From the NCBI GenBank assembly GCA_003171065.1, contig PMXQ01000149.1, positions 57,490-121,489 of the forward strand: a stretch of 64,000 nucleotides of DNA, in the 5' to 3' direction. Within the stretch, counting starts at the first letter, position 1, and the number at the start of each line of letters is the position of its first letter. The stretch is from Chloroflexota bacterium. Its GTDB lineage: Bacteria; Chloroflexota; Limnocylindria; Limnocylindrales; CSP1-4. Below the pieces are notes generated by a model, which saw only the letters and a program-made list of their open reading frames with translations, searched no databases and was not told the origin of the DNA. A program made the position numbers and the translations under genes. This document shows positions 7,348-47,637 of the stretch, one piece after another.

Positions 7348-7405
7348 TAGGTCCTCTCGGGTTCGTGGGTCAAGGTGCGACCCCGACTGGGGCCGACCGG
7401 GGCGG

Positions 7406-7411: not shown

Positions 7412-7452
7412 AGCACACCGTTTCCCCCCACCAGGTCGGGAGTCGCACCCAT

Positions 7453-16406: not shown

Positions 16407-16952
16407 ATGGAGGGATCGGTGGAGCGGGAGCTGGTGCTCGCGGCCCGACTGGGCGACGAGGTCGCCTTTGCCCGGCTGATCGAAGCGGAGGCTCCACGGG
16501 TCTACCGCGCCGTTCTGGCGGTCGTCGGCTCGCCCGAGGATGCCCAGGAGGTGATGCAGGATGCGTCGATACGAGCCTGGCGCCGGCTTCGGGAGCTGCG
16601 GGAGGCCGATAGCTGGCCGGCCTGGTTCCGTCGCATCGCTGTCCGGCAGGCATTCGATCGCGCGGGACGACAAAGCCGCATCCGGCTGCATGAGGTCAGC
16701 CTCGACGCTGCCGAAGGGGACGCCGGGCATGACCCGAGCTCAGGCTGGGCGGACCGGGCGAGCGTGATGTCGGCGCTGCAGCTTCTGGCAAGAGAAGACC
16801 GGGCGCTGCTGGGCCTGCGGTTCGGCGCCGATCTGGCGGTGCCGGATATCGCCTCGGCTCTGGAGATTCCTCTGGGCACGGCGAAGTCGAGGCTTCACCG
16901 GGCGCTCGGCCGTCTGGCGGCGGCCATGGGAGATGACGATGTCCGGCGATGA
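16407..16952 (+). CDS. ECF (group IV) RNA polymerase sigma factor
   Basis: Region 2 (LVLAARLGDEVAFARLIEAEAPRVYR..PEDAQEVMQDASIRAWR) and region 4 helix-turn-helix (DIASALEIPLGTAKSRLHRA). Start ATG at 16407 inside track ORF 16356..16952. Confidence 0.85.
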   Translation: MEGSVERELVLAARLGDEVAFARLIEAEAPRVYRAVLAVVGSPEDAQEVMQDASIRAWRRLRELREADSWPAWFRRIAVRQAFDRAGRQSRIRLHEVSLDAAEGDAGHDPSSGWADRASVMSALQLLAREDRALLGLRFGADLAVPDIASALEIPLGTAKSRLHRALGRLAAAMGDDDVRR

Positions 16953-18177
16953 ACCGATCCTGACGGCCGGCGAGGAGCGTGCGGCCGCGGCGCTGAAGCT
17001 GGCGCTGCAAGACGTGAGCGAGCAATGGCCGCTGCGTGCGGACGTGGCCGCGTGGGTGGCGAGCGTGCCGAAGCGGCAGTCGCTCGGGCACCGGCTGCCG
17101 GTCGGCATGGCCGCCGCTCTTGCCATGATAATCGTGGGTGCCGTGGCGTTCGCCGCGTGGCCGAAAGCGGTGCCTGGAGGTGGAGGAGCCTCGCCCTCCG
17201 CCGTGCCGTCGATCCCGGGCACCCCGGGCCATTTCGACAACGGCTCCTTCTCGTTCGACTATCCCGCAAGCTGGCGAACGCTCTCCGACGAGTACTACGA
17301 GGGCATGGTGAACCAGGTGTTCGCGGTGCTCGGGACCGGTGACTGGAAGACCGGCTGCTACTTCACGTCCAACGGCGGCGGCTGTACCGGCGACACGGTG
17401 GACGTCTCGGGCGGCCGGGTCGTCGTCAAAGTCTACGAACGGGGCGGCGGGCCCGTCAGCACGTGCGGGACAAGCCCGGCCAATGCCACGCTCGGGCCTA
17501 ATGCGGTCTCGAAATCGACTGACGGCTCGGCAACGACCTGGGAGATCCGGATGCCGGGTGGCGACTTCGGATGGACTAACAACGTCTTCGTGGAGGCCTG
17601 GGCAGGCGGCCCGCAGCAGATGGCCCAGGCCGAAGCTCTGGTCGCCAGCTTCCGGTGGGCAGACGGCGTGTCGAATCCAGACAACTGCTTCCAGAACGAG
17701 ACGCCCTCGCCCGGCATGGCGCACTACGACGCGGACGGCACCTCATTCGACTACCCGGCCGGCTGGTCCATCCTCTCGGGCTACGAGCACTGGGGCCTGC
17801 ACGGGCCGACGATCCACTTCGCGGTGGGGACGGGCACCGTGGATTCGGGGTGCACCGTGAGCGCTAATCAAGGGGTTTCGTGCGGCGCTCCAAGCCTCAG
17901 CGCCACCGGGGACCAGGTGGTTGTCTTCTGGTACGGCGGCGCGTCGCTGTTCTCCAACGTCGCGTCGATGTTCCCCAGCCTCCCCACCGGAAGCCTGCCA
18001 CCTGGCGAGACACGAGTCACTGTTGCGGGCGCGCCGGCAATCGCAAGCCACGGCGACGGTTGGGCAAAGTGGCAGCTGAGCCCGGCGGAATACATCGAGG
18101 CGAACTGGGGACCCGACGCCACGGACGCCGAGGCCCAGGTCGACGCCCTCATCGGGAGTCTCTCGCTCGGTCAATAA
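16933..18177 (+). CDS. Putative anti-sigma factor: short cytoplasmic N-terminus, one transmembrane helix, and an extracytoplasmic domain made of two tandem ~110-aa repeats
   Basis: Overlaps the sigma gene by 20 nt. Transmembrane helix AALAMIIVGAVAFAAW. Internal duplication (GHFDNGSFSFDYPASW.. versus AHYDADGTSFDYPAGW..). Confidence 0.6.
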   Translation: MTMSGDEPILTAGEERAAAALKLALQDVSEQWPLRADVAAWVASVPKRQSLGHRLPVGMAAALAMIIVGAVAFAAWPKAVPGGGGASPSAVPSIPGTPGHFDNGSFSFDYPASWRTLSDEYYEGMVNQVFAVLGTGDWKTGCYFTSNGGGCTGDTVDVSGGRVVVKVYERGGGPVSTCGTSPANATLGPNAVSKSTDGSATTWEIRMPGGDFGWTNNVFVEAWAGGPQQMAQAEALVASFRWADGVSNPDNCFQNETPSPGMAHYDADGTSFDYPAGWSILSGYEHWGLHGPTIHFAVGTGTVDSGCTVSANQGVSCGAPSLSATGDQVVVFWYGGASLFSNVASMFPSLPTGSLPPGETRVTVAGAPAIASHGDGWAKWQLSPAEYIEANWGPDATDAEAQVDALIGSLSLGQ

Positions 18178-20148: not shown

Positions 20149-21165
20149 GTGGCCGGAAACGGAGGGCGGGGTTTGGAATCGGGAACGGATCAGAGATACG
20201 TACGCTGCCGGCGTTGCCACGACGTCTTCGAGGCGGGCCTTTCGAATTGCCCGCGGTGCGGGGCTGCCTACGTTCCATCCGGCGATCCGTCGGAGCCTCA
20301 GGGCGGTTCATACGTTGAGAAGTACGTGGGCACGGAGTTCTCGGAGCCGCCGGATTTGCCGCCGTCGGTCCCGACAGCCAATCGGTCGGGGCTGGGCTTC
20401 CTGCTCGCGATTGGGGTCGCCCTGGTTGTCACGGCGCTGGCTATGGGCGGATTGGTCGCGATGGGTGCCTTCGACACGCCGGCTGCAACCCCGCGCCATG
20501 ACATCGTCGTCGCCAGGTCGCCGACCCCGACCCCTGCGCCCACGCTGCCCCCAATCGTGAGCAAGACGCTCGAGCAGCTCGCCGATCCCAACCTGAACAT
20601 GCATGTCTCCATCCGGACGACCGTCTCGGTGAACGCTCGGGTGACCGGTCGCTCCGTATCTATCACCATGAACATGGATGTCGATTGCGCCGACGGGAAT
20701 GAGTCGGGCACGGACACGACCGGCGGAGTCACCTATGAGTGGCGGCTGGTCGATGGCACGTACTACCAGAGGCGGCTGCCGACCGGGACGTGGAAAGCCC
20801 AGAGCTCGGTTTCCCCGTTCGTGGTTCTGAGTCCGCTGTTCTCGCTCACCGACCCTCGAATGCTCCAATACGATGGCCCCGACCAGGTGAACGGGGTTCA
20901 GGCCGACAAGCTGGAGAGCACACCCTGGTGGACTCCGGACTCCGGCAAGTTGAGCGGCCTGGACGTTGCCACGCTGGCTATCAGCCCCCAGCACACACAG
21001 CTCATGCTCTGGGTCGCCAGCGACGGCTCGCCGATCTACGCGACCTTCAGGGCCTGGACCGATGCCAGTGACGGCACGGGCACGAACCTGCTCAACATCT
21101 CGACGACGTACACGTTCACGAACGTCGGTGAGGTGTTGCCGATCCCCTCACCGACGATCAAGTAG
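20149..21165 (+). CDS. Membrane-anchored protein: N-terminal zinc ribbon, one transmembrane helix, Pro/Thr linker, extracytoplasmic beta-rich (LolA/LppX-like) domain
   Basis: Zinc ribbon CRRCHDV..CPRCG. Transmembrane helix LGFLLAIGVALVVTALAMGGLV. PTPTPAPTLPP linker. Exact start uncertain. Confidence 0.5.
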   Translation: MAGNGGRGLESGTDQRYVRCRRCHDVFEAGLSNCPRCGAAYVPSGDPSEPQGGSYVEKYVGTEFSEPPDLPPSVPTANRSGLGFLLAIGVALVVTALAMGGLVAMGAFDTPAATPRHDIVVARSPTPTPAPTLPPIVSKTLEQLADPNLNMHVSIRTTVSVNARVTGRSVSITMNMDVDCADGNESGTDTTGGVTYEWRLVDGTYYQRRLPTGTWKAQSSVSPFVVLSPLFSLTDPRMLQYDGPDQVNGVQADKLESTPWWTPDSGKLSGLDVATLAISPQHTQLMLWVASDGSPIYATFRAWTDASDGTGTNLLNISTTYTFTNVGEVLPIPSPTIK

Positions 21166-26788: not shown

Positions 26789-27076
26789 GTGGCTCTCAGT
26801 CCTGCGCCTGTGCTGGCCGTCCTGGTCGGACTGTTCCACGCCGCGTTGTTCGTGTTCTTGCGCGGGCGTGCGGGCGGCCGGATCGTCCTGGTGGCATGCG
26901 CCGCGATCCTGGGGGCGTGGGCGGGGGATGCCGTGGGCGGCCGGCTCGGCGGCGATCCGCTTCGCGTCGGCGACTTCCACGTGGTCTCCGCCTCCGTCGT
27001 GGCCTGGATCGGCATCGCGTTCGTGTCTGTGATCGCGATTCTCGGCCCGGCGACTGCCCCGGAGGAGCAGGAATGA
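26789..27076 (+). CDS. Small hydrophobic protein (3 predicted transmembrane helices), hypothetical
   Basis: GTG ORF, 95 aa, entirely hydrophobic helices. Sits in the mnmA-alaS spacer. Confidence 0.35.
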   Translation: MALSPAPVLAVLVGLFHAALFVFLRGRAGGRIVLVACAAILGAWAGDAVGGRLGGDPLRVGDFHVVSASVVAWIGIAFVSVIAILGPATAPEEQE

Positions 27077-27234
27077 TCAGATCGCTGGCCTGGCTCCTGG
27101 TCCGCCGCCGCGCTGGCTCGGGGCCGAGCGATCCGCGACTCGTGGCGTTCGCTCGTGGTCTGGCCCTGGGAGCCCTTGTCGGCGCCGCGATCGCCGGTTC
27201 GACCGTGTGGAATCGCCGTAGCACGCGGGTCTAG
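27073..27234 (+). CDS. Very small membrane protein (53 aa), hypothetical
   Basis: ATG overlaps the preceding stop (ATGA). One transmembrane segment LALGALVGAAIAG. Low confidence. Confidence 0.25.
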   Translation: MIRSLAWLLVRRRAGSGPSDPRLVAFARGLALGALVGAAIAGSTVWNRRSTRV

Positions 27235-27354: not shown

Positions 27355-30087
27355 ATGCCTGACCCGCCCATTCCCTACCTCAGCGGGGCGGAGATTCGCC
27401 GCCGATACGTCGAGTTCTTCGCCGCGCGGGGCCACACCGTGGTGCCGAGCGCGTCGCTCGTGCCCGCGGGCGACCAGACGCTGCTCTTCACCAACTCCGG
27501 GATGGTCCAGTTCAAGGACGTGTTGACCGGGCGAGAGAAGCGCAGCTACGTCCGTGCCACGGACTACCAGCGCGTGCTGCGGGTCGCGGGCAAGCACAAC
27601 GACTTCGAGGAAGTCGGCCGCACGACGCGCCATAACACGTTCTTCGAAATGCTCGGCAACTGGAGCTTCGGCGATTACTTCAAGCGCGAGGCGATCCATT
27701 GGGCGTGGGAGTTCCTCACCGAGGATCTTGGCATCCCGAGTGAGAGACTGGCAGCCACTACCTACAAGGACGACGAGGTTGCCCGGTCGATATGGCGCGA
27801 TGAGATCGGCCTGCCGCCCGAGCGGATGGCCGTCTGGGGCGATGTCGACGCCGGCGACGACAACAACTTCTGGCGAATGGCAGAAACCGGCCCGTGCGGG
27901 CCGTGCAGCGAGATCCACTTCGACCGCGGTGCTCACCTGTCCGAGGGACCCGAGTGCATCCCGGACCACTCTGAGCATTGCCCGCGCTGGCTCGAGGTCT
28001 GGAACCTCGTGTTCATGGAGTTCGACCAGCGTCCAAGCGGGCGCGTGCCGCTCCCGTTTCACAGCATCGACACCGGGATGAGCCTGGAGCGCCTGGCGAG
28101 CGTCGTCCAACAGGTCTCGAGCAACTTCGACACGGATCTCTTCACGCCCATCCATGCCGCCATGCGCGACTTGCTGGGCCACGACCCGGAAGCGTTCGAG
28201 GCGGAGCGGTTCAGCTACCAGGTGATCGCCGATCACTCCCGGGCCGTGACGTTCCTCGTCGCCGACGGCGTTGCACCCGCCAACGATGGCCGTGGCTACG
28301 TCCTGCGCCGCATCATCCGTCGCGCTGTGCGACACGGGCGCCTGCTCGGTCGCCGCGAACCGTTCATGGACGTAACCGCGGGCGTCGTGATCGACGTGAT
28401 GGCGGGCGCATACCCGTATCTCATCGACCAGCGCGCCAGAATCCTGAAGGTGATCCATCAGGAGGAAGCCCAGTTCGCTCGGACCCTGGAGACGGGTACG
28501 AGCCATCTGGAGGCCGCCCTGGCACCCCTGACGAAGGCCGAACGAACGATCGGCCGGCGGCTGGAATCGCTGCCGGAGGATGCCCCCGTTCTGTCAGGGG
28601 CGGTCGCGTTCAGGCTCCACGACACATACGGGTTCCCAGTCGATCTCACCGTCGACATGGCCGCCGAGTATGGCGTCCGCGTCGATCGCGGAGGCTTCGC
28701 GGCCGCGATGGCCGAGCAGAAGGAGCGTAGTCGCAAGGGCACCAGGGCCGAGTTGGCGCGCCAAGCCGAGCTGGGGGATCTCTACCAGGCGATCCTGCGA
28801 CGGACCGGCGAAACGCGCTTCCTTGGCTACGATGGCACGGAGGCCGAGGGGCGGGTCGTGGCGATCCTGCGTGACGGAATCGAGTTTCAGGAGCTGACCG
28901 GCCACGGCGAGGCCGAGGTTGTCCTCGACGCCACTTCCTTCTACGCGGAGGGCGGCGGCCAGGTCGGCGACCGAGGCGAGCTCCTCGAGGCCGGCGGCGG
29001 CAGTGCGCTCTTCACGGTCGAGGACACTCAGAAGCCGATCACCGGACTCTTCGTGCATCGGGGCAAGCTGCACGGACGGCTACGGGTCGGGGAGACGGTC
29101 ACTGCCCGGGTGGACGCCGACCGACGGGCCCGCACGATGCGCAACCATACGGCCACGCACCTGCTGCACCGGGCCCTGCGCAACGTCGTCGGCCCGGAGG
29201 CGCACCAGGCCGGCTCGCTCGTGGCGCCCGACTACCTGCGCTTCGACTACCCGATGGACCGGCCGCTGACAGCTGCCGAGAAGCGCGCGATAGAGGACGA
29301 AGTCCGGCGGATCGTGCGCGAGAACCGCAGCGTGACGACCGTGGTTCAGCCGATGGCCGCCGCGATCGCAGCCGGCGCGGACGCTCTCTTCGACGAGAAA
29401 TACGGCGAGCGCGTCCGGACCGTCCGGGTCGAGGGCTACTCGCTGGAGCTGTGCGGCGGCACGCACTGCTCGGCCTCCGGCCAGATCGGCGGCTTCGTGA
29501 TCACCGCCGACCGGAGCATCGGAGCGGGCACGCGCCGCATCGAGGCGATGACGGGCGACGGCGCCGACGCCCTCCTGCGTGAGCGCACGGAACTGCTGGA
29601 GCGGATCGCGGAGACCGTCGGGGCCACGTCCGTGGATGCGGCGCCCGACCGCGTCGCCGCAATGCAGGATGAGCTGCGCGAGGTTCGCCGCCGGCTCAGG
29701 ACAGGCGGAGGCGGCCTCCCCAATGCCGCCGAGCTGGTCGCCCGGGCCGAGGAAGTGGCACCCGGAGTCAAGCTGGTCGCCCATTCTGGAGCCTTTGATT
29801 CGGCCGAGCAGTGGAAGGGCTTCGTCAAGGAAGTCCGGGCCGCGATGGGTTCGGGCGTGATCGCCGTCGCCTTTGACGCCGACGCCCCGCAGATCTTCGT
29901 GACAGTCAGCCCGGACCTGGTCACGGGTGGCGTCTCGGCCGGCGAGCTCGTGAAGGTGGCGATGAAGCCGATGCAAGGCCGCGGCGGCGGCCGCCCGGAA
30001 ATGGCCCAGGGGATGGGAACGCGCCGCGAAGGTATCGTTGCCGCCCTGACGGCGATCGCGGATACACTAAGAACGGCACGCAAGTAG
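27355..30087 (+). CDS. alaS: Alanyl-tRNA synthetase
   Basis: N-terminal LLFTNSGMVQFKD, editing-domain HTATHLLH, C-terminal DHHA1 domain. About 910 aa. ATG at 27355. Confidence 0.9.
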   Translation: MPDPPIPYLSGAEIRRRYVEFFAARGHTVVPSASLVPAGDQTLLFTNSGMVQFKDVLTGREKRSYVRATDYQRVLRVAGKHNDFEEVGRTTRHNTFFEMLGNWSFGDYFKREAIHWAWEFLTEDLGIPSERLAATTYKDDEVARSIWRDEIGLPPERMAVWGDVDAGDDNNFWRMAETGPCGPCSEIHFDRGAHLSEGPECIPDHSEHCPRWLEVWNLVFMEFDQRPSGRVPLPFHSIDTGMSLERLASVVQQVSSNFDTDLFTPIHAAMRDLLGHDPEAFEAERFSYQVIADHSRAVTFLVADGVAPANDGRGYVLRRIIRRAVRHGRLLGRREPFMDVTAGVVIDVMAGAYPYLIDQRARILKVIHQEEAQFARTLETGTSHLEAALAPLTKAERTIGRRLESLPEDAPVLSGAVAFRLHDTYGFPVDLTVDMAAEYGVRVDRGGFAAAMAEQKERSRKGTRAELARQAELGDLYQAILRRTGETRFLGYDGTEAEGRVVAILRDGIEFQELTGHGEAEVVLDATSFYAEGGGQVGDRGELLEAGGGSALFTVEDTQKPITGLFVHRGKLHGRLRVGETVTARVDADRRARTMRNHTATHLLHRALRNVVGPEAHQAGSLVAPDYLRFDYPMDRPLTAAEKRAIEDEVRRIVRENRSVTTVVQPMAAAIAAGADALFDEKYGERVRTVRVEGYSLELCGGTHCSASGQIGGFVITADRSIGAGTRRIEAMTGDGADALLRERTELLERIAETVGATSVDAAPDRVAAMQDELREVRRRLRTGGGGLPNAAELVARAEEVAPGVKLVAHSGAFDSAEQWKGFVKEVRAAMGSGVIAVAFDADAPQIFVTVSPDLVTGGVSAGELVKVAMKPMQGRGGGRPEMAQGMGTRREGIVAALTAIADTLRTARK

Positions 30088-30108
30088 AGATCAGCTAGGG
30101 GAGCGGCC

Positions 30109-31371
30109 GTGGCGTTCTGGCGCAGAATCTGGGGCCGCGACGAGGTGGCGGCGCTGGCTGCCTGCACGGCGCTGGACGTCGGCACCGAGTTCGCAAAGGC
30201 GCTCGTCTTCGACATCGACGAAGCTGGGCTGGGCACCGTGCGGGGCGTCGGCCGCAAGCGCCAGGGTCTTGCTCACATGCAGTCGGGCACGGTGACCGAC
30301 ATCAACGCGGTCGTTGACAACTGCTCCGTCGCGCTCCAGGAAGCGGAAGAGATGGCCGGCTTCCGGCCCACGCAGTGCGTCATCGGAATTGCCGGGGAGC
30401 TGGTCAAGGGCTTCACCATGACGCGATCCCATGAGCGCAAGCGCCCCGCCGCGCCGATAACGGATATGGAGCTGCAGAAGCTGATCGACGGCGTCCAGCA
30501 CGACGCCCTGCGTGAGGCCGAGCGGGCGATCACCTGGGAGACGGGTCTACCGCAGGTGGACGTGCGGCTGGTTCACGCCGCGGTGACCGGCGCCCAGATC
30601 GATGGCTATCCGGTCACCAACCCGGTCGGCTTCAAGGGCCGCAACGTCAAGATCAGCATCTTCAACGCCTTCGCGCCCCTCGTGCACCTCGGTGCGCTGC
30701 AGAGCGTCGCCGAGCAACTCGACCTGGAGCTGCTGGAGGTCGTGGCCGAGCCGTACGCCGTGGCCCGGGTCCTGGCCAGCGAGCAGGTGCAGCAGTCCGG
30801 GGCGCTTTTCATCGATATCGGCGGCGGCACGACGGACGTTGCCCTCGTCCGTCACGGCGGCATCGAGGGGACGCGTATGTTCGCCCTGGGCGGCCGGGCC
30901 TTCACGAAATCGATCGCGGACCACCTGGATCTGCCCTTTCCGCGTGCAGAAGAGGTCAAGGTCGACTACGCGAAAGGCAGGCCGGTGGAGCACGCTGCCG
31001 AGGTGGCCCAGGTGGTGGCCGACGACGTGGCGATCTGGTCGGCCGGCGTGGAGCTGGTCCTCGAAGAGCTGGCCGAGGGCGACCTGCTGCCGAGCCGGGT
31101 TTACATGTGCGGCGGCGGCTCGCACCTGCCGGAGATCGCTACGGTGTTGCGCAGCGAGGAGTTCTGGAAGCGCCTGCCGTTCAGCCGGCCGCCTGAGATC
31201 TTCGTGATGGCCCCGGGCCAGGTCGAGCGGATAAAGGACGCGACGCATCTTCTGGTCGACCAGCAGGACGTCACCCCCCTCGGTCTCGCCTACCAGGCGA
31301 TCGAACTGCAGACCAACGAGGATCCGCTGGATGTCGCTCTGCGGCGGGTCCTCCGAGCGATGAAGATGTAG
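30109..31371 (+). CDS. FtsA-like actin-fold ATPase (FtsA/PilM family, SHS2 insert, C-terminal amphipathic helix)
   Basis: LDVGTEFAKALVFD, IDGYPVTNPVGFKGRNVKISIFNAFAP, FIDIGGGTTDVALV, VYMCGGGSHLPEI and C-terminal LRRVLRAMKM match FtsA architecture. Not in a cell-division gene-cluster context. Confidence 0.8.
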   Translation: MAFWRRIWGRDEVAALAACTALDVGTEFAKALVFDIDEAGLGTVRGVGRKRQGLAHMQSGTVTDINAVVDNCSVALQEAEEMAGFRPTQCVIGIAGELVKGFTMTRSHERKRPAAPITDMELQKLIDGVQHDALREAERAITWETGLPQVDVRLVHAAVTGAQIDGYPVTNPVGFKGRNVKISIFNAFAPLVHLGALQSVAEQLDLELLEVVAEPYAVARVLASEQVQQSGALFIDIGGGTTDVALVRHGGIEGTRMFALGGRAFTKSIADHLDLPFPRAEEVKVDYAKGRPVEHAAEVAQVVADDVAIWSAGVELVLEELAEGDLLPSRVYMCGGGSHLPEIATVLRSEEFWKRLPFSRPPEIFVMAPGQVERIKDATHLLVDQQDVTPLGLAYQAIELQTNEDPLDVALRRVLRAMKM

Positions 31372-31375
31372 CGCC

Positions 31376-33283
31376 ATGGCGATCTATTACATCGATGTCG
31401 ACGACGAGATCACATCCGCGGCTGCACGAATCCGCGATGCCAGCGAAACGCGCATCGCCCTGGTCATTCAGGGTGGATCACGCCTGGCGACGTCGCGGAT
31501 CAACTTCCGGCTCCTGGCCCGCGAGGCGCGCCATCGCGGACGGCGCCTGGCGATCATCGCCGCCGACGCCACGGTTCGGTCGCTGGCTCAGACGGCCGAC
31601 TTGCCCGTATTCGCCAGCGTTGCCGAGTACCAGAGAGCGGAAGCCGCGCGACCGCCGGGCAGTCAGCCAGGTGGCGCCAACGAGGTAGGGGACACTCTCG
31701 ACGAGCTGGCGGCCACGGTCGGCACCGGAGACTCCGGTCGGGCGGCGAGGCTTGCCGGTGGCGGCGGCCCCAATCGGACGGGCGGCGTTGGGCAGGTTGC
31801 GCCGCACGCGAGACGCCGGTTCGGTCTCGGCGCCTGGCGTTGGGTCGCCCTGGCGCTCGTCGCGGTCCTCCTGGTGGGGGGCCTCGGCGCGTTCCTTCTG
31901 CTGCCGAGCGCGACCGTCGTATTGACGTTGAAGGAGGAGGCAGTCGGCCCACTGAACCTGGCTGTCAAGGTGGATCCCGGTATCAGCGCTCCCAACGACG
32001 TAACCCTCACGGTTCCGGGCGTTGCCGCGGAGTTCGCTCTGCAGGCGAGTGGGACATTCGACGCCACGGGCCAGAACGTGGTCGACACGGCGGCCACGGG
32101 CACCGTCACGTTCACAAGCGCCAACACGGGTGAGGCAGTGAGCATTCCGGCGGGTACTCAGGTCGAAACCGCGGGTGGAGTGGCGTTCGCGACAACTGCC
32201 GCGGTGACTGTCCCCAAGGCCACGCTGATCGGTCTTACGGTCACGCCTTCAACGGCCGACGTGGCCGTCACGGCCGTCAAGAAAGGACCCACCGGGAATG
32301 TCGCCGTCAAAGCGATCGTCAACGTACCGGCCTGGCTGGCGACAGCTCTGGTCGTACAGGATCAGGTGACCAACAAGAAGGCCACTTCGGGCGGCACTCA
32401 CACCGTGACGCCGTTCGTCCAGCAGTCCGACGTCGACGCCGCAGAAGCCAGCCTGGCGGCACAGCTCGCCTCGGCCGCACAGGCCAAGATGGCCGATCCG
32501 TCGTCGGTGGCGGCCGGCATGGAGTTGTTTCCGGCGACGGGCCGCTTGGACGACCCGAGCTTTGCCCCCGACCCGGCCACGCTCCTGAACCAGGGGCTGT
32601 CGAGCTTCGGTCTCGCCGCCACCGCGACGGAGACCGTCACGGCGGCTAATCTCACCAGCGTGCGCAGCCTCGCCCAGCGCGAGATCGTAGCCAGGGTTCA
32701 GGCCGGCCACGCGCTCGTCGATGGCTCGATCGTGATCACGTTTGGGTCGCCGGCGGCTGACGGATCCGTGGTTTCGGTCCCGGTGGTCGCCAGCGCGCTG
32801 CAGACGCCGACGGTGGACGTGAACCAGTTGCGCGCCGCGATCAAGGGCAAGTCCGCGACGCAGGCCAGGGCCTATCTGTCCCAGTACGGCGCCGCGAAGG
32901 TTTCCGTCTGGCCGTTCTGGGTGTCGACGATTTCCGGGTTCGATTTCCGGATCGACGTGAGCCTGATGGCGCCGCCCGCGCCGCCCGCCGTCGCCTCCGT
33001 GACGCCTGCGCCGGTTCCTTTGCCTACGCCAGAGGAGACTTCCACGCCGACCGGGGTCGCGACGCCGACCGAGATCGCGACGCCGACCGAGATCGCGACG
33101 CCGACCGGCGAACCGACGCTCCTACCGTCCGGCGCGCCGTCTCCGAGCCCGACTCCGACGTCGGTGGCATCCGCCTCGACCGGCGAGCCGACGCCCTCCC
33201 CGTCCGGGGCGCCATCGCCGAGCCCGACTCCGACGTCGGTCGCAACCGATTCGGCCGGCGCGAGCCAGACGGTCACGCCGTGA
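31376..33283 (+). CDS. Large bitopic membrane/surface protein: ~95-aa cytoplasmic N-domain, Gly/Pro-rich linker, one transmembrane helix, ~350-aa Thr/Val/Ala-rich beta domain, C-terminal Pro/Thr/Ser tandem repeats
   Basis: Transmembrane helix WRWVALALVAVLLVGGLGAFLLL. Repeats TPTEIATPTEIATPTGEPT, SGAPSPSPTPTSVA x2. Starts 5 nt after the FtsA-like gene. Confidence 0.6.
   Translation: MAIYYIDVDDEITSAAARIRDASETRIALVIQGGSRLATSRINFRLLAREARHRGRRLAIIAADATVRSLAQTADLPVFASVAEYQRAEAARPPGSQPGGANEVGDTLDELAATVGTGDSGRAARLAGGGGPNRTGGVGQVAPHARRRFGLGAWRWVALALVAVLLVGGLGAFLLLPSATVVLTLKEEAVGPLNLAVKVDPGISAPNDVTLTVPGVAAEFALQASGTFDATGQNVVDTAATGTVTFTSANTGEAVSIPAGTQVETAGGVAFATTAAVTVPKATLIGLTVTPSTADVAVTAVKKGPTGNVAVKAIVNVPAWLATALVVQDQVTNKKATSGGTHTVTPFVQQSDVDAAEASLAAQLASAAQAKMADPSSVAAGMELFPATGRLDDPSFAPDPATLLNQGLSSFGLAATATETVTAANLTSVRSLAQREIVARVQAGHALVDGSIVITFGSPAADGSVVSVPVVASALQTPTVDVNQLRAAIKGKSATQARAYLSQYGAAKVSVWPFWVSTISGFDFRIDVSLMAPPAPPAVASVTPAPVPLPTPEETSTPTGVATPTEIATPTEIATPTGEPTLLPSGAPSPSPTPTSVASASTGEPTPSPSGAPSPSPTPTSVATDSAGASQTVTP
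33044..33250 (+). repeat. In-frame tandem coding repeats (18-nt unit gcgacgccgaccgagatc x2-3; ~60-nt unit x2) encoding a Pro/Thr/Ser-rich C-terminal linker
   Basis: Direct DNA repeats visible at 33061-33110 and 33121-33240. Protein repeats TPTEIATPTEIATPTGEPT and SGAPSPSPTPTSVA. Confidence 0.7.
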
Positions 33284-33822
33284 GCGTCAACGACGACGGC
33301 CGTGGCGAGGCTCCGAGGCTGCGGCGGGTCCTTGGCATTGACCTGGGTGAGCGCCGCATCGGCGTGGCCCTGGGCGAGGTGGAAACGCACTCGGCGCTGC
33401 CGCTGGCCACGCTCAGCCGGGCTCGAACCGTCGACGAGGATGCTCGCGTGGTGGCGCGCCTCGCGGCTGAGCAGCGGGCGGACGGCCTGGTCGTCGGGCT
33501 GCCCCTCAACGCTGACGGGAGCGAGGGGCCGCAGGCTGCCACGACTCGCGAGTGGGCTGTCGCAGTGGCGGTCGCGACCGGTTTGCCGTTACGATTCCGC
33601 GACGAGCGCCTTACGAGCGTGCGCGCGGAACAACGGATCGGCGGCCCGGCGAGGGGGAGATCGGGTGGCCCGCCCAGCGCGACGCGGCGGGACGCACACC
33701 GGGCGCGCATCGATCGTGAGGCGGCGGCGCTGATACTGCAGGACGACCTTGACGCCACAGCCGGACCCACGGACGAGTCTGCGTCCGGTCGGGGCCAACC
33801 CGCGGAGCGAGGAACCGAATGA
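33280..33822 (+). CDS. ruvX: Holliday-junction resolvase-like RuvX/YqgF
   Basis: LGIDLGERRIGVALGE..VVGLPLNADG match YqgF. Conserved alaS..ruvX-mltG neighbourhood. Confidence 0.85.
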   Translation: MSVNDDGRGEAPRLRRVLGIDLGERRIGVALGEVETHSALPLATLSRARTVDEDARVVARLAAEQRADGLVVGLPLNADGSEGPQAATTREWAVAVAVATGLPLRFRDERLTSVRAEQRIGGPARGRSGGPPSATRRDAHRARIDREAAALILQDDLDATAGPTDESASGRGQPAERGTE

Positions 33823-35255
33823 GTATGCGCAGCGACCAGGATCCGCAGAGGCAGGGTCGCCGCGGCGTCCGGGGCGGATCGTCCGCCACGCCGCGCCCAT
33901 TCGTGGACACAGGCTGGGACGGCTACGACCCGGCCGGGGCCGACGCGGTGGGCGCTGGTTCCAAGGGGGGCTCGGCCACGGACGACCGCCGTGACTACAA
34001 GTCGAGCAAGTCGGGCGGCGTGGGCACGGTCCTGCGCTTCGCCGTGTTCACTCTTGTGCTGGCCAGCCTCGTCCTCGGCGGGCTCTACTTCTTGGCGCGC
34101 CCGGCCGTCTTCCACGCCATCGCCGACTGGGGTGCGGAGAATCCGACCGCCTTGAGTGTTCCCCTGGTGGCCGACATCGTCCGCAGCGATCTAGGCACCA
34201 GTCTAACCGAGCCGGTGGACCCGGAGGACTTCCGCCAGATCGCCTTTCAGGTCCAGTACGGCGACACGACGGCCGACATCGGGGATGCGCTCGTCAAGGC
34301 GGGCGTCATCGCCGACGCGCGGGCCTTCGTGTTCGAGGCCATCGAGCGAGGCGAGACGTCCAACTTCATCGCCGGGCGCCACGTCGTCACCAGGGCCATG
34401 ACCGTTGATGGGATCATCGATGCCCTGACTTCGCCGATCGTGGCCGCGCCCACGGTCCGCCTGACCTTCCGAGAGGGGCTGCGCATCGAGCAGATGGTGG
34501 CCGAGCTGGAGTACCTGGAGGCCAATCCTGTCGATCCCGCCGTCAAGCTCACGTTCGACGTCGCCGATTACTACCAGCTGGCGACTGATCCCCCGGCGTC
34601 CCTACTGGCCCAGTACAGCTGGCTCAAGTTGCCGGCGGGCGCATCCCTCGAAGGCTTTCTGTTCCCGGCCACGTACACCGTCGACCCGAACATCACACCC
34701 CTCGAGCTCATCGAGCAGCAGCTCGACGCCTTCGTCGCTCAGGCGCCGCCCGCATTGTTCAAGCTGACTCCGGACCAGATCTACCAGACCGTGCAGATCG
34801 CTTCGCTCGTCGAGCCCGAGGCGGTGCTGGACTCGGACCGGGCCCTGGTGGCAGGGGTCTACATCAACCGGCTCGATCCCAAGAAGTGGCCGACCGGCCT
34901 CCTCGAGTCGAACCCCACGGTCGACTACGCGAACGACACGGTGTGGCTGCAGTCAAATCCAATAGCGAGCTGGGTGGGCTACACGTTCTGGGTCCCCGTC
35001 GGCGGAACCACGCCGCTGGCGCAGATCGTGTTCCCGGACAACATCGCTCCGTACAACACGTACCACCATGCCGGCCTGCCCCCGACCCCGATCGACTCGC
35101 CCGGACTGGCTTCGCTGGTGGCGGCGGTCGACCCCGACACCGCCGATGGCTACTACTTCTTCCTGGCCAAGAACGACGGCAGCAACGGGCTGGCATTCGC
35201 CCACACGAACGCCGAGCAGATCGCCAACGAGAAGAAGTACGGCTACATCAAGTAG
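33819..35255 (+). CDS. mltG: Endolytic murein transglycosylase MltG (YceG family)
   Basis: N-terminal transmembrane helix and a YceG domain with a catalytic-Glu region. Overlaps the ruvX stop. Confidence 0.85.
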   Translation: MSMRSDQDPQRQGRRGVRGGSSATPRPFVDTGWDGYDPAGADAVGAGSKGGSATDDRRDYKSSKSGGVGTVLRFAVFTLVLASLVLGGLYFLARPAVFHAIADWGAENPTALSVPLVADIVRSDLGTSLTEPVDPEDFRQIAFQVQYGDTTADIGDALVKAGVIADARAFVFEAIERGETSNFIAGRHVVTRAMTVDGIIDALTSPIVAAPTVRLTFREGLRIEQMVAELEYLEANPVDPAVKLTFDVADYYQLATDPPASLLAQYSWLKLPAGASLEGFLFPATYTVDPNITPLELIEQQLDAFVAQAPPALFKLTPDQIYQTVQIASLVEPEAVLDSDRALVAGVYINRLDPKKWPTGLLESNPTVDYANDTVWLQSNPIASWVGYTFWVPVGGTTPLAQIVFPDNIAPYNTYHHAGLPPTPIDSPGLASLVAAVDPDTADGYYFFLAKNDGSNGLAFAHTNAEQIANEKKYGYIK

Positions 35256-37305: not shown

Positions 37306-38883
37306 GTGAGCCGCAGCGGGCCTCCGCAGAGCGAGCCCCTCTGGGGCGACTTCCCTGTGGACGGGTCCGCGGCTACCTCCGATGGATCGAGGCCGCCCGA
37401 CTGGGCGCTGCCATCGTGGGATTCGATCCCCGCAGACGAGACGGAACCGGCACCACCCTCGCCCGCGCCCGCGCAGGCGCCCGCGCGCGCGGAGCGAGCC
37501 GGGTCCGATGCGGCGCAACAGCCGCGCCCCGAGCCGGCAGGGGGCTTCGCGCTGCGAATCCTCCAGGTCAGCGAGGTTACGCGTGCCGTACGAGACGCAG
37601 TTCGCGCCGAGGACGGGCTGCGCGACGTCTGGGTCGAGGGCGAAGTTGGGCGAGTCACCGTCTCTTCGGCGGGTCACGCCTACTTCACCCTGAAGGACGA
37701 ACGGAGTCAGCTCGCCTGCGTCTTCTTCCGCGACGACCGGCTGAGTTCGCTATTCGAGCCGCGGACGGGGCTGCGAATCGTCGTTCACGGTCGCATCGAC
37801 GTGTTCGAGTTGCAAGGCGTGTACCAGCTGTACGTGGCCGCGCTCCAGCCTGCCGGGTTCGGCGACCTGGCTCTGAGATTCGAGGCGCTCAAGGCGAGGC
37901 TCGCGGCCGAAGGCCTGTTCGACACGGCTCGCAAGCGGCCGCTTCCCATCAGGCCGGCTGTGATCGGCGTGGCCACGAGCGCGACCGGCGCCGTCTGGCA
38001 CGATATCTGCCACGTCGTCGCGCGACGCTGGCCGCTGGCCCGGCTGCTCCTATCACCGTGTCAGGTCCAGGGTGAAGGGGCTGCCGCCAGCGTCGTGGAA
38101 GCGCTGGAACGGCTGGCCCGCTGGGACGCACAGTGTCGCGCGGAAGGTCGGCCGGAGGACGCCCCCGATGTGGTCATTCTGGCCCGCGGCGGCGGCTCGC
38201 TGGAGGATCTGTGGTCGTTCAACGATGAACGCGTCGTACGTGCCGTCGGGGCGCATCCGGTTCCCGTCGTGTCTGGCGTGGGCCACGAGGTGGACGTGAC
38301 GCTGGCCGATTTCGCGGCCGATGTCCGCGCCCCGACGCCATCCGCCGCCGCCGAGCTGGTCGTGCCCGACAGGGCGGAGATGGTGGCAGTCCTGCGTGAG
38401 CTGGCTCGGCGTGCCGGCGTCTGCACGGCCCGCGTCCTCGCGGGCGGACGGGCCGAGGTCGCTGCGGAAGGCCGAGGCCTTGAGCGGCTTCGCCCGTCGG
38501 CCCAGCTGGCGCAGGCCCGCGAGCGCGCCGGCTATCTACTGGATCGGGCAACCCGAGCCTTGCGCGGCGAGATCGGCCGGCGGGCCGATGCGGAGCAGCG
38601 CCTTGCCGCGCGGCTGGGCCCGGTGTTGGCGGTGCAGCTGGCTGCGCGCCGGGCCGGCCTCGAACGAAGCTCGGCGGCGCTGGCCGCCCTCGGTCCGCAG
38701 GCAACGCTGGACCGCGGGTATGCGATCGTGAGGCGCCGCTCGGACGGGGCGATCGTCCGCGGGTCCGACCAGGCGCCGGCGGGCGAGCGGCTCGCATTGC
38801 GCGTCGCCAGGGGCGAGATCGCTGCGAGGGTCGAAAGCGATGCCGGGGCGGCCGGCCGACCGTCGAAACGTGGCGCCGCCTGA
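37306..38883 (+). CDS. xseA: Exodeoxyribonuclease VII large subunit with an N-terminal low-complexity extension
   Basis: OB-fold plus ExoVII catalytic core (VIGVATSATGAVWHD, LARGGGSLEDLW). GTG preceded by AGGAGGA. Confidence 0.85.
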   Translation: MSRSGPPQSEPLWGDFPVDGSAATSDGSRPPDWALPSWDSIPADETEPAPPSPAPAQAPARAERAGSDAAQQPRPEPAGGFALRILQVSEVTRAVRDAVRAEDGLRDVWVEGEVGRVTVSSAGHAYFTLKDERSQLACVFFRDDRLSSLFEPRTGLRIVVHGRIDVFELQGVYQLYVAALQPAGFGDLALRFEALKARLAAEGLFDTARKRPLPIRPAVIGVATSATGAVWHDICHVVARRWPLARLLLSPCQVQGEGAAASVVEALERLARWDAQCRAEGRPEDAPDVVILARGGGSLEDLWSFNDERVVRAVGAHPVPVVSGVGHEVDVTLADFAADVRAPTPSAAAELVVPDRAEMVAVLRELARRAGVCTARVLAGGRAEVAAEGRGLERLRPSAQLAQARERAGYLLDRATRALRGEIGRRADAEQRLAARLGPVLAVQLAARRAGLERSSAALAALGPQATLDRGYAIVRRRSDGAIVRGSDQAPAGERLALRVARGEIAARVESDAGAAGRPSKRGAA

Positions 38884-45171: not shown

Positions 45172-46152
45172 ATGGCCGGCGCCGCAGCGGGCCGGACGGA
45201 GGGCGGCGAGGCGCGCCAGACGGCGGGCCAGACGGATCGGCTGCAGGCAGCGATAGAGGAGTACCTGGTCCATCTCCGAGTCGAGCGCGGGCTGTCAGCC
45301 GCGACGCTCCGGGCCTATCGCGCCGATCTGCTGGATTTCGCCGCCAGTCGTGGGGCCGCTGCCGAGTGGGATGCCTCAGCCGGCGTGGCGGTTCGGTATC
45401 TTGGGATGCTGGCCTCGCCGGGCCGTGGTCGCCGGACGCCGCTGCGGCCCACCACTCTCCGCCGGAAAGCGGCGTCTCTGCGTGGGTTCTACCGCTTCTG
45501 CTTCGCGGAAGGGCTGATCGCCACAGACCTGGCCGCGCGGTTCGAGCTGCCGCGACAGCCCCGGCTTCTGCCCGAGGTGCTGACCGTGGAAGAGGTGGAC
45601 GGTCTGCTGGCGATCCGAGCCGGCGATTCGCCCGCCAGCATGCGCGACCGCGCCCTGCTCGAGCTGCTATATGCCAGCGGCCTGCGCATCTCCGAGGCTG
45701 TCGGACTCGATCGGGACGACCTTTCTCTCGAAGATGGACTGGTCCGGGTCGTCGGGAAAGGCGATCGGGAACGACAGGTACCGGTCGGAGAGGTTGCCCT
45801 CGGTTGGCTGCTCCGGTACATCAGCGAGATCAGGCCGGCGTGGCTCGCTCTGGCTACGCCGCCTCTGCCACACGGTGGGCCCTTGTTCCTGTCCGTGCGC
45901 GGCGGGCGGCTCGACCGCCGGAGGGCCTGGGAGATGCTCGTCGCGGCCGCCCGTTCGGCCGGCCTTCAGAATGGAGTCAGCCCGCATACACTACGGCATT
46001 CGTTCGCGACTCACCTATTGGAGGGAGGCGCCGATCTGCGTATCGTTCAGGAGCTGCTCGGGCATGCGAACATCAGCACGACACAGCTGTACACGCATCT
46101 GACCGGCGAACGGATCAAGGACGTCTACGCCCGCGCCCACCCACGGGCCTGA
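45172..46152 (+). CDS. xerD: Tyrosine site-specific recombinase XerD/XerC (chromosome dimer resolution)
   Basis: RHSFATHLLEGGADLRIVQELLGHANISTTQLYTHL with catalytic R..HxxR..Y. Starts 2 nt after recN, a housekeeping context. Confidence 0.8.
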   Translation: MAGAAAGRTEGGEARQTAGQTDRLQAAIEEYLVHLRVERGLSAATLRAYRADLLDFAASRGAAAEWDASAGVAVRYLGMLASPGRGRRTPLRPTTLRRKAASLRGFYRFCFAEGLIATDLAARFELPRQPRLLPEVLTVEEVDGLLAIRAGDSPASMRDRALLELLYASGLRISEAVGLDRDDLSLEDGLVRVVGKGDRERQVPVGEVALGWLLRYISEIRPAWLALATPPLPHGGPLFLSVRGGRLDRRRAWEMLVAAARSAGLQNGVSPHTLRHSFATHLLEGGADLRIVQELLGHANISTTQLYTHLTGERIKDVYARAHPRA

Positions 46153-46196
46153 GAGCGAAATCGCCCGACGGTGGACGGGCACAGAAGGAGACGAGG

Positions 46197-46886
46197 ATGA
46201 GCTACGCGGAAACGTTGATGGCAAAGGACGAGCAGATCCTCTACCGAGGCAGGCAGCACTGGCTGGCGCCCCTTTCCGACTCGTTGCGGCCTATCGTGCT
46301 CGTACTCTTGGGGCTGGTGATCTTCTTCCTGGCCACACTCTGGAAGGCCAGCGGCACCGTCTGGCAGATCATGGCTGGCCTGAGCGCCCTGCTCTTCATC
46401 ATTGGCATCATCTGGATCGCCATCGTGTACCTCACCTGGCGCGCCGAGGAGTACCTCGTCACCGGTCGCCGGGTGCTCAAGGTCCAAGGCCTGCTGGACA
46501 AGAAGAGCGGCGATGCCTCGCTCGACAAGATCAACGACGCGGTCCTCAAGCAGGGCTTGCTCGCCAGAATGCTCCGCTACGGCGACCTGGAGATTTTGAC
46601 CGGCAACGACGATGCGATCGACCTCTACCACATGCTCTCCCACGTGGTCGACTTCAAGAAGGCGATGCTGAACGCCAAGAACGATCTCGAGGATGGTTAT
46701 CGTGGGTCGGCAAGCAGCCCAAGCCCGGCTGCTGCCGCGCCGAGCGTCCCCGTTGCGACGGGCAAGTCTTCGAGTTCGGACGATGTGGCCGCCACGCTCG
46801 CCAAGCTGGCCGACCTGCGTGACAAGGGCGCGATCACTCCTGCGGACTACGAGGCCAAGAAGGCCGAGCTGCTCGGCCGCCTGTAG
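46197..46886 (+). CDS. Membrane protein with a bacterial PH domain (bPH_2/YdbT-like, two transmembrane helices) fused to a C-terminal SHOCT domain
   Basis: Two transmembrane helices, a PH-like core (VTGRRVLKVQGLLDKKSGDASLDKINDA), Ser/Pro linker and the SHOCT motif LAKLADLRDKGAITPADYEAKKAELLGRL. ATG preceded by AAGGAGACGAGG. The upstream part of track ORF 45366.. is rejected. Confidence 0.75.
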   Translation: MSYAETLMAKDEQILYRGRQHWLAPLSDSLRPIVLVLLGLVIFFLATLWKASGTVWQIMAGLSALLFIIGIIWIAIVYLTWRAEEYLVTGRRVLKVQGLLDKKSGDASLDKINDAVLKQGLLARMLRYGDLEILTGNDDAIDLYHMLSHVVDFKKAMLNAKNDLEDGYRGSASSPSPAAAAPSVPVATGKSSSSDDVAATLAKLADLRDKGAITPADYEAKKAELLGRL

Positions 46887-46964
46887 CTCGAGACGTTTCA
46901 TCGCGGGGAGCGACGGGCGGCACGGTAGGATACCTCCGCCCGTCCCGCAGCCGAGAGGTAGAGC

Positions 46965-47636: not shown

Positions 47637-47637
47637 C

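Follow-up and report, generated by a model that had tools for sequence, protein, structure and literature searches.

An FtsA-like ATPase and a bitopic partner form a fixed gene pair in Limnocylindria and probably connect an intracellular filament with the envelope

Introduction

The locus described here raises the question of why an FtsA-like ATPase and a surface-exposed membrane protein are encoded next to each other between alaS and ruvX, outside any division gene cluster, and what the two proteins might do together. Actin-like ATPases paired with bitopic adaptors (FtsA-FtsN, MreB-RodZ, and PilM-PilN) couple cytoplasmic filaments to envelope synthesis, and the envelope and division biology of the Chloroflexota is poorly known. 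The pair is undescribed: a literature search found no papers on it, and there is no phenotype on record because the organisms that carry it are uncultured.

Results and Discussion

A coupled gene pair in a housekeeping neighborhood

We analyzed a single 64 kb stretch of Chloroflexota DNA (the window), in which the pair and its immediate neighbors are arranged as follows.

27355..30087, + strand: alaS (alanyl-tRNA synthetase), a 910-aa call with tRNA-synt_2c, tRNA_SAD, and DHHA1 domains on the identical source contig
30097..30103, + strand: Shine-Dalgarno-like AGGGGAG, 5 nt 5' of the GTG of the FtsA-like gene, read directly from the sequence
30109..31371, + strand: FtsA-like actin-fold ATPase gene (gene 1), GTG start, 420 aa
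31376..33283, + strand: partner gene (gene 2), ATG start, 635 aa, bitopic protein
33280..33822, + strand: ruvX (YqgF), with a start that overlaps the partner stop
33819..35255, + strand: mltG (YceG family endolytic transglycosylase), with a 4-nt overlap with ruvX

Both open reading frames proposed in the initial annotation exist with the architecture given there, and both have a coding-type GC3 (0.88 for gene 1 and 0.82 for gene 2). AGGGGAG stands between the alaS stop (30085-30087) and the GTG of gene 1, 4 nt lie between the gene 1 stop and the gene 2 ATG, and the partner stop overlaps the ruvX GTG in the sequence GTGA (33280-33283). The genes show operon-like coupling, since the gaps are short, stops and starts lie near or overlap each other through ruvX and mltG, and the + strand has no terminator-like site in 26.5-37.5 kb. 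The first gene of the transcription unit shared with the FtsA-like gene is probably alaS.

Matches were found in at least 492 species representatives, and 80 loci were fetched. The gene order alaS-ftsA-like-partner-ruvX-mltG was present in all 80 of these GTDB loci and in three more distant metagenome members, and all informative taxon labels of the carriers were Chloroflexota/Limnocylindrales. The neighbors were housekeeping genes in every locus examined. In most of 77 species the two genes are 2-25 nt apart, and their place between alaS and ruvX is constant, which bears out the proposal of a lineage-specific pair that is tightly coupled. The earlier wording that they were "inserted" between alaS and ruvX holds against other phyla only; within the lineage the arrangement is ancient and fixed, with no recent insertion. 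The neighbors alaS, ruvX, and mltG belong to an ancestral gene order of the Terrabacteria, so the proximity of mltG may say nothing about function.

Median identities across the neighborhood were 78.6% for the FtsA-like protein, 75% for EF-P, and 68% for AlaS, and the FtsA-like gene was the best conserved of the neighborhood in 48 of 68 loci. Stronger conservation than that of EF-P argues that the ATPase is essential. Over its full length the partner shows the lowest identity of the neighborhood (39%), and its parts have median identities of 62% (cytoplasmic domain), 14% (linker), 39% (ectodomain), and 11% (tail). A conserved cytoplasmic head followed by a drifting linker, ectodomain, and tail is what direct contact between that head and the ATPase would predict.

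An FtsA-family ATPase outside the division cluster

Judged by its sequence, gene 1 is an FtsA-family actin-fold ATPase that falls under the NCBI equivalog cut-off for FtsA. It scored 53 bits against Pfam FtsA (PF14450; cut-off 31.8) and 106.7 bits against TIGR01174 ftsA (E 1.3e-30; equivalog cut-off 175.85), the latter match covering only model positions 3-256 of 371. MreB models scored much more weakly than FtsA models. In a search of the family profile against the PDB, the best solved relative was FtsA 7q6f (residues 20-291; E 3.4e-17), and the nearest solved structures were FtsA filaments, among them 7q6i (FtsA with an FtsN peptide), and the complex of PilM with PilN (2ych); the fold matches are only indicative because the AF2 model of the ATPase is poor (pLDDT 49.8). 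JGI annotates the protein as FtsA, and NCBI as "FtsA domain-containing." Among the 77 species loci for which length was measured, about 70 encode a protein of 420 (+/-1) aa, and the others are frameshifted or miscalled. The actin-fold nucleotide-binding motifs DVGT, DIGGGTTD, and CGGGS are all present and invariant in 29 orthologues, and a candidate membrane-targeting sequence closes the protein.

30175..30186, + strand: phosphate-1 motif D23-V-G-T26; D23, G25, and T26 invariant in 29 diverse orthologues
30814..30837, + strand: phosphate-2 motif DIGGGTTD, residues 236-243, from a motif scan; invariant in the family
31108..31122, + strand: adenosine-binding motif C-G-G-G-S, residues 334-338; C334 and G335-G337 invariant in 29 orthologues
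31324..31368, + strand: C-terminal amphipathic helix PLDVALRRVLRAMKM, candidate membrane-targeting sequence by hydrophobic moment and family conservation

The helical hydrophobic moment of the protein peaks (0.82) over its last 11 residues, ALRRVLRAMKM, a stretch conserved in the family, and the low-confidence model predicts a helix at 406-419. A putative SHS2 insert (subdomain 1C, which in FtsA stands where MreB and actin have 1B) is suggested by the alignment to FtsA 7q6f, unbroken over residues 20-291 and thus across the 1C region; Pfam SHS2_FTSA gave no match at E<=1, and confidence in the AF2 model is low. The stretch that aligns with FtsA subdomain 1C is strongly conserved (0.87-0.97), and the expected 2B region is the least conserved part of the protein (0.68-0.72). 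Subdomain 2B is where FtsA binds FtsZ.

Gene 1 also lies outside the dcw cluster, in agreement with the initial annotation. Its constant neighbors are alaS and ruvX, a motif scan found no FtsZ signature in the window, and searches of the window, of 84 related loci (each scanned for ftsZ to +/-10 kb), and of the 33 kb downstream on the source contig turned up neither ftsQ nor ftsZ. Proximity of ftsZ in relatives, which the initial annotation named as part of what would refute it, is itself refuted by these loci.

A membrane-spanning partner with a baseplate-type outer domain

The AF2 model of the partner has a mean pLDDT of 80 and, together with the sequence, divides the protein into the following parts.

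31376..31660, + strand: cytoplasmic N-domain, residues 1-95, with a STAS/SpoIIAA-like alpha/beta fold (pLDDT ~84)
31661..31834, + strand: disordered Gly/Pro/Ala/Arg-rich cytoplasmic linker, residues 96-153, of variable length (pLDDT <50 over 96-151)
31835..31903, + strand: single transmembrane helix, residues 154-176; the model places the helix at 154-175, WRWVALALVAVLLVGGLGAFLLL
31904..32968, + strand: extracytoplasmic beta-rich domain, residues 177-531 (pLDDT mostly >90)
32087-32398, + strand: baseplate-J/gp47 wedge-type beta-barrel core of the ectodomain, residues 238-341 (PF04865)
32969..33280, + strand: Pro/Thr/Ser/Ala-rich tail, residues 532-635, with tandem repeats (18 nt x3.6, 75 nt x2.1)

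The N-domain matches the STAS fold in its predicted structure and carries the conserved motifs YLDVDDEIT and GSRxATSRINFRLL. At the sequence level, Pfam (E<=1) and a PDB profile search gave no STAS match, and hhalign to a provisional SpoIIAA sequence was non-significant (E 0.42). A basic HARRR ahead of the transmembrane helix suggests an N-in topology.

The beta domain, described earlier as Thr/Val/Ala-rich, is not without a family: residues 238-341 match Baseplate_J (PF04865; 32.4 bits against a gathering cut-off of 21.1). The same Pfam domain is precomputed on nearly all partner homologues, phrog_6 matched with E 2.5e-10, and the ectodomain has a baseplate wedge-protein fold, with only ~105-155 of its 355 residues matching baseplate proteins. 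The tail comprises 104 residues, 75% of them P/T/A/S, and the idea that it forms an S-layer or mucin-like stalk is still conjecture. Partner length ranges from 527 to 635 aa in relatives, with one clade at ~505 aa. The POTRA domain and C-terminal beta-domain of FtsQ/DivIB were not recognized in the partner, which disposes of the earlier proposal of a divergent FtsQ-like protein, and a domain search found no matches to PilN or RodZ.

A proposed filament-adaptor complex

We propose that the two proteins are halves of one membrane-spanning filament-adaptor complex acting in envelope growth and/or division, and we give this reading a probability of roughly 0.55. An envelope or division accessory system, as first suggested, is also the best reading of the data collected here. 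The FtsA-like ATPase would bind ATP, be held at the cytoplasmic face of the membrane by its C-terminal amphipathic helix, and, by analogy with FtsA, PilM, and MreB, probably make short filaments. The small, folded STAS-like domain of the partner would engage the ATPase. After one membrane crossing, the partner would present its baseplate-wedge-like beta-domain on the outer surface of the membrane, where it would probably self-associate (wedge-like oligomerization is an extrapolation from the ~105-155 matching residues), and its Pro/Thr-rich tail would extend into the wall. The module, which would be co-transcribed with the peptidoglycan strand-terminating enzyme MltG, may thus link an internal actin-like scaffold to the cell envelope in Limnocylindria, much as FtsA-FtsN, PilM-PilN, and MreB-RodZ do elsewhere. 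What the data show are the identities of the domains, the topology, the operon-like coupling, the fixation across the lineage, and the pattern of conservation; contact between the two proteins, polymerization, and the cellular process are inferred from these.

Comparison with known systems shows likenesses in layout and differences in parts. The pair shares with FtsA-FtsN (Vibrio maritimus FtsA-FtsN(1-29), PDB 7q6i) an FtsA-type actin-fold ATPase (best PDB match 7q6f/7q6i), a C-terminal amphipathic helix on that ATPase, and a bitopic, N-in partner whose cytoplasmic end would contact it. It differs in the sub-equivalog score of gene 1 and its distance from ftsZ/ftsQ, in having a folded cytoplasmic domain of 95 residues where FtsN has a short peptide, and in having a baseplate-J-like outer part where FtsN has a SPOR domain. 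RodZ, which couples to the actin-like filament protein MreB, offers the same partner layout of a small folded head, a disordered basic linker, one transmembrane helix, and, beyond the membrane, a beta-domain accompanied by Pro/Thr-rich low-complexity sequence; however, the ATPase here is FtsA-type and not MreB-type, the head is STAS-like instead of helix-turn-helix, and no RodZ homology was detected. The ectodomain core passes the gathering score of Baseplate_J, the family of phage and contractile-injection wedge proteins (P2 gpJ, Mu gp47, T4 gp6, and Afp11/Pvc11), but the partner is anchored in the membrane and has a cytoplasmic domain. GlxA of Streptomyces lividans, a membrane-anchored cuproenzyme (PDB 4unm), is set apart by its catalytic galactose-oxidase-like propeller, which is missing from the partner, and by a Pfam GlxA score under the cut-off.

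Alternative explanations

Gene 1 could instead be the lineage's sole division FtsA, an FtsZ tether that has moved away from ftsZ, with the partner as an unrelated co-transcribed neighbor; if the genome lacks a canonical ftsA next to ftsZ, gene 1 may be nothing other than the FtsA used in division. FtsA is indeed its best match in both sequence and fold, the 420-aa length and C-terminal amphipathic helix are as in FtsA, and the JGI label agrees. A supplementary marker-gene table also lists FtsZ (TIGR00065) as "yes" in one of its two marker-use columns (PMC10608941), and if that column is read as the Chloroflexota marker set, some FtsZ tether is probably needed. Against this stand the missed equivalog cut-off with its partial model coverage, the domain-level NCBI name, the absence of ftsZ within 10 kb in all 80+ loci, the adjoining ftsA and ftsZ that other Chloroflexota keep (PMC10608941), and the low conservation of the very region expected to bind FtsZ. 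A chance neighbor would also fail to explain why the pairing never varies, why the gaps are short, and why the partner is conserved selectively in its head, and we consider this explanation unlikely, if worth keeping in view. We find it improbable that the pair serves as an assembly platform of the PilM-PilN kind, for a surface filament or a machine for secretion or DNA uptake, and has no part in wall growth or division. PilM belongs to the same FtsA-like actin-fold branch, its structures are among the top fold matches of gene 1, and the type IV pilus alignment complex (PDB 2ych) has the same layout of an ATPase gene followed by a bitopic one. Yet the PilM models all scored under their cut-offs and more weakly than FtsA (PF11104, 21.3 bits against 27, E 1.5e-4; TIGR01175, 33.2 against 133, E 2.7e-8; the PilM-like Amuc_1101 model, E 4.7e-7), the partner is unrelated to PilN, and no locus has pilN/O/P/Q, a secretion or pilus ATPase, a secretin, or a prepilin peptidase adjoining the pair. 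Conservation above that of EF-P would be unusual for pilus accessory proteins. A Flp/Fap pilin-like gene lies ~27 kb downstream of the pair, which would suit such a platform.

The partner might also be chiefly a signaling protein, its STAS-like head switched (e.g. by Ser/Thr phosphorylation at the invariant T39/S40) to regulate the ATPase according to envelope cues sensed by the ectodomain. The non-significant hhalign alignment places T39/S40 on S58/S59 of SpoIIAA, its phosphorylation site, and both invariant motifs fall in loops that, going by the fold, would match the STAS interaction face. This is offset by the blank sequence-level searches, by the provisional SpoIIAA sequence behind the alignment, and by the lack of partner-switching kinase or phosphatase genes in the operon and near the pair. 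We doubt that signaling is the main role, though it is compatible with a filament-adaptor complex and does not exclude one. Finally, the Pfam, PHROG, and fold matches to baseplate wedges could mark the partner as left over from a prophage or from a contractile injection system, or as part of a defense island, to which we give next to no credence. tblastn against 50,697 phage genomes and IMG/VR returned no match, PADLOC was blank, and no sheath, tube, spike, gp25-type, or other phage or injection-system genes lie near the pair, whose composition equals that of the rest of the window. Its position is fixed across hundreds of species in a housekeeping context, and the partner has a transmembrane helix and a cytoplasmic domain. 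A remnant is effectively refuted by the context, the phage-database blanks, and the fixed position; the pair is neither mobile nor phage-derived in the recent past.

Implications for Limnocylindria

A bolder form of the filament-adaptor proposal, which we offer tentatively and would not yet bet on, is that part of the Limnocylindria division or elongation machinery consists of a hyper-conserved FtsA paralogue and a transmembrane adaptor with an exapted phage wedge domain. The wedge domain would self-assemble outside the membrane, the STAS-like head would dock on the filament and perhaps switch it, and the whole would be a new actin-based, membrane-spanning morphogenetic complex replacing the roles of FtsN/FtsQLB or RodZ.

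The labels "FtsA" (JGI) and "baseplate J/gp47 family protein" (NCBI) are misleading in these genomes, and the second could set off false prophage calls. If the filament-adaptor reading is true, the pair would clearly illustrate how a phage baseplate-wedge domain can serve a core cellular function instead of a tail or injection system. It would also add one more ATPase-adaptor pair, made from different parts and specific to Limnocylindria, a widespread uncultured soil and freshwater class of Chloroflexota.

Results and Discussion

A Gene Pair Within a Conserved Housekeeping Operon

The ORF call confirmed two genes on the + strand between alaS and ruvX, as proposed in the initial annotation:

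30085-30087, + strand: stop codon of alaS, then AGGGGAG, with 5 nt between it and the gene 1 GTG
30109-31371, + strand: gene 1, GTG start, 420 aa, FtsA-like ATPase
31376-33283, + strand: gene 2, ATG start, 635 aa, bitopic partner

Third-position GC is of the coding type in both (0.88 and 0.82, respectively), and the window stays near 69% GC along its whole length, without a shift in composition where the pair lies. The gene 1 stop and the gene 2 ATG are separated by 4 nt, the gene 2 stop and the ruvX GTG overlap as GTGA, and ruvX and mltG overlap by 4 nt. No terminator-like or promoter-like sites were found on the + strand from 26.5 to 37.5 kb of the window, and Rfam and tRNA scans returned no matches in the region of the pair. 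Judged by their sequence, the junctions from alaS through mltG look like those of a single operon.

A 111-kb ENA contig contains the window, whose 64 kb are housekeeping genes in series, almost all on the + strand:

First block: priA, def, fmt, rpe, dtd, fakA, recG, rsmD, coaD, yceD, hisS, aspS, typA
Middle block: iscS, mnmA, alaS, the pair, ruvX, mltG, pepP, efp, xseA, xseB
Last block: dxs, tlyA, recN, scpA, scpB, rluB, cmk, plsC, ispH, der

In Firmicutes, ruvX and mltG come after alaS in a conserved gene order. Because the window resembles this order, the premise that alaS normally precedes ruvX-mltG is sound. The resemblance extends over positions 1-64000 (priA-def-fmt, hisS-aspS, iscS-mnmA, alaS-ruvX-mltG, efp, xseAB-dxs-tlyA-recN, scpAB-rluB-cmk, and der), a depth of synteny unusual for a Chloroflexota genome.

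Several other features of the window were recorded. Two small conserved ORFs without Pfam matches lie between mnmA and alaS (26789-27076, 95 aa, hydrophobic; ~27073-27234, 53 aa), and both are annotated there too in relatives whose partner protein is 51% identical. xseA (37306-38883) is called as 525 aa, and in a relative as 407 aa; Pro/Ala/Ser-rich, low-complexity sequence accounts for the ~120 additional residues at the N terminus. The ORFs flanking aspS (16933-18177, 414 aa; 20149-21165, 338 aa, or 279 aa as called) have no significant Pfam family, with a sub-threshold PsbP_2 hint for the 414-aa ORF only. GC is lowest at 46000-48000 (0.646), and a short minus-strand ORF there (46241-46549), with recN on one side and an M50 peptidase-like gene on the other, has atypical codon-position GC (GC1 0.39). 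Downstream of the pair are a tRNA-Pro(GGG) (57021-57097) and a 47-aa Flp/Fap pilin-like gene with a weak Pfam match (~57980-58120; 7370-7513 in the related locus L088), the latter hinting that Tad-type pili of this organism may be encoded elsewhere.

Gene 1 Encodes an FtsA-Family ATPase

Gene 1 matched FtsA in Pfam (PF14450, 53 bits), with weaker matches to MreB, EutA, and PilM. Its match to the NCBIfam ftsA model TIGR01174 (E = 1.3e-30) scored 106.7 bits vs. a cut-off of 175.85 and covered only model positions 3-256 of 371; accordingly, NCBI names it only “FtsA domain-containing protein.” JGI labels it FtsA. The closest solved structures are the FtsA filaments 7q6f, 7q6g, and 7q6d, followed by EutJ, PilM, and MreB, and the family profile matched solved FtsA over residues 20-291 (E = 3.4e-17). 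The nucleotide-binding motifs DVGT, DIGGGTTD, and CGGGS were invariant across 29 diverse orthologues. Together, these results uphold the earlier identification of an FtsA-family ATPase with a GGGTTD loop.

Within the protein, the helical hydrophobic moment peaks at 0.82 over the final 11 residues (ALRRVLRAMKM), in agreement with the amphipathic C-terminal helix noted initially, and this segment fits a candidate FtsA/MinD-type membrane-targeting helix. The AF2 model of gene 1 was poor (pLDDT 49.8) because its input was limited to close homologues (28 sequences, ≥84% identity); Foldseek on this low-confidence model ranked FtsA above EutJ, PilM, and MreB, which agrees with the sequence data and adds little. 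Residues 1-10 (30109-30138) carry a motif conserved across the family, M-x-F-[W/L]-R-R-x-W-x-R, which is helical in the same model. This aromatic/basic motif could be a second membrane- or partner-binding element, one lacking in canonical FtsA.

Gene 2 Encodes a Bitopic Protein With a Baseplate-Like Ectodomain

The AF2 model of gene 2, built on 46 homologues, was good for the folded parts and bore out the predicted layout:

Residues 1-95: N-domain, pLDDT ~84
Residues 96-151: disordered stretch
Residues 154-175: sole TM helix, preceded by HARRR
Residues 177-531: ectodomain, pLDDT mostly >90

The HARRR ahead of the TM helix suggests an N-in topology. Within the ectodomain, residues 238-341 matched Baseplate_J (PF04865, 32.4 bits vs. 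a cut-off of 21.1), and the ectodomain also matched phrog_6, “baseplate wedge subunit” (2.5e-10). Its model superposes on wedge proteins, with only 115-155 residues in common with any of them. The tail proved as repetitive as described (104 residues, 75% P/T/A/S, made of 18-nt and 75-nt tandem repeats). Sequence-level membership of the N-domain in the STAS family was negative by Pfam, PDB profile, and hhalign against SpoIIAA. A divergent FtsQ-like partner had also been suggested; Pfam and fold searches gave no similarity to FtsQ/DivIB, POTRA, PilN, or RodZ, and we rejected FtsQ/DivIB, PilN, and RodZ as identities for the partner.

The Pair Is Fixed in a Chloroflexota Lineage

The closest homologues come from MAGs labeled Candidatus Limnocylindrales or Chloroflexota. 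A representative library contained partner relatives in 259 clusters (50% identity) at E ≤ 1e-30 and 4567 at E ≤ 1e-3, and at least 492 loci with a gene for such a relative turned up when one genome was scanned for each GTDB species. All 80 of the loci kept from these share the order (iscS-mnmA-)alaS-ftsA-like-partner-ruvX-mltG(-pepP-efp-xseA) as far as their contigs reach, as do three representatives that are among the most distant (35-36% identity). When one of these three seeded a further search, the labels were once more exclusively Chloroflexota, and a clade of ~505 aa came up as well. The conserved alaS-ruvX synteny supports the earlier suggestion that the pair is lineage-specific. In 77 species loci, the ATPase was 420 (±1) aa in ~70, the rest being frameshifted or miscalled, and the gap to the partner gene was 2-25 nt in most.

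A few loci labeled Eisenbacteria, Sulfotelmatobacter, Patescibacteria, or Dormiibacterota (L052, L064, L067, and L046) carry the same operon in the same identity range; these labels are probably binning or labeling errors and not true occurrences. We also rejected L079 (49% identity) as a divergent outlier. This long-read assembly (CAWGBA010000005.1, 5600-14800) has several frameshifts across alaS, the FtsA-like gene, and mltG, and these make its tblastn identity look like that of a divergent lineage. Broken ORFs also occur in other “MFD” long-read loci (L018, L019, and L071).

The Two Cytoplasmic Components Are Selectively Conserved

Median identity of relatives' proteins to the window proteins, over GTDB loci
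ATPase: 78.6%
EF-P: 75.1%
IscS: 68.4%
AlaS: 68.3%
MnmA: 66.9%
PepP: 63.7%
XseA: 62.9%
RuvX: 56.1%
MltG: 43.1%
Partner: 39.3%

The ATPase was the top-ranked conserved gene in 48 of 68 loci. Along the ATPase, conservation is among the highest (0.87-0.97) over the part that aligns with subdomain 1C of FtsA. Median identity within the partner was 62% for the N-domain, 14% for the linker, 35% for the TM helix, 39% for the ectodomain (47% in its baseplate core), and 11% for the tail. Since exactly the two cytoplasmic components are selectively conserved and their pairing is invariant, these patterns point to direct contact between ATPase and partner.

The pair consists of an actin ATPase of the FtsA/PilM branch and, translationally coupled to it, an N-in bitopic protein whose cytoplasmic head is small and folded. 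FtsA-FtsN, PilM-PilN, and especially MreB-RodZ have the same layout, and in these systems the actin-like protein is contacted by its bitopic partner through a head or a peptide. We favor, at slightly better than even odds (about 0.55), a membrane-spanning filament-adaptor complex, probably involved in envelope growth or division.

Alternative Explanations

Gene 1 could instead be a relocated canonical FtsA beside an unrelated gene 2. Its FtsA matches are in keeping with this. Conservation in the ATPase is lowest (0.68-0.72), however, over the presumed 2B region, which is the FtsZ-binding site in FtsA, and the partner accompanies the ATPase in all the loci kept. The FtsZ signature GGGTG[ST]G was absent in any plausible frame from the window, from 84 related loci, and from a further 33 kb along the source contig (to position 97060); gene 1 has no ftsZ alongside, as initially observed, and the converse idea of ftsZ lying nearby in relatives is refuted for these loci. 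In other Chloroflexota, ftsA adjoins ftsZ (PMC10608941). A supplementary marker-gene table has two marker-use columns and flags FtsZ (TIGR00065) “yes” in one, a column that we read as the Chloroflexota marker set (PMC10608941); therefore, Limnocylindria very probably carry ftsZ elsewhere in the genome. We consider simple relocation unlikely.

A platform of the PilM-PilN kind, serving a surface organelle, would share the layout of the pair, and PilM is among the structural neighbors of gene 1; given a partner that does not resemble PilN, we hold it to be quite improbable. Equally doubtful as the principal function is a STAS-switch signaling role, which is suggested by the STAS-like head, is set against the negative sequence-level comparisons, and would be compatible with the filament-adaptor complex. 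The baseplate matches might recall a phage or injection-system remnant. A tblastn search of 50,697 phage genomes gave no match to the ectodomain, no relative came from IMG/VR, and PADLOC had no match for the partner; we rejected a prophage or defense origin, and such a remnant is extremely unlikely.

Proposed Role of the Pair

In the library searched, we found no paper pairing FtsA with baseplate J or describing this pair. The components are from known superfamilies and the coupling logic is already known; there is no earlier description of their combination, of the STAS-like head, or of a baseplate-wedge domain put to cellular use in a core operon. In the filament-adaptor complex that we favor, a cytoplasmic FtsA-like scaffold, presumably polymerizing, would be linked through the membrane to an extracytoplasmic baseplate-wedge-like domain that may oligomerize, and the PT-rich tail would span the wall. 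Domains, topology, coupling, fixation, and the pattern of conservation are established by the present analysis, and interaction, polymerization, ectodomain oligomerization, and the cellular process are inferred from them. The predicted co-transcription with mltG fits an envelope role, though it may be inherited synteny, and the complex would probably act in the growth or division of the cell envelope.
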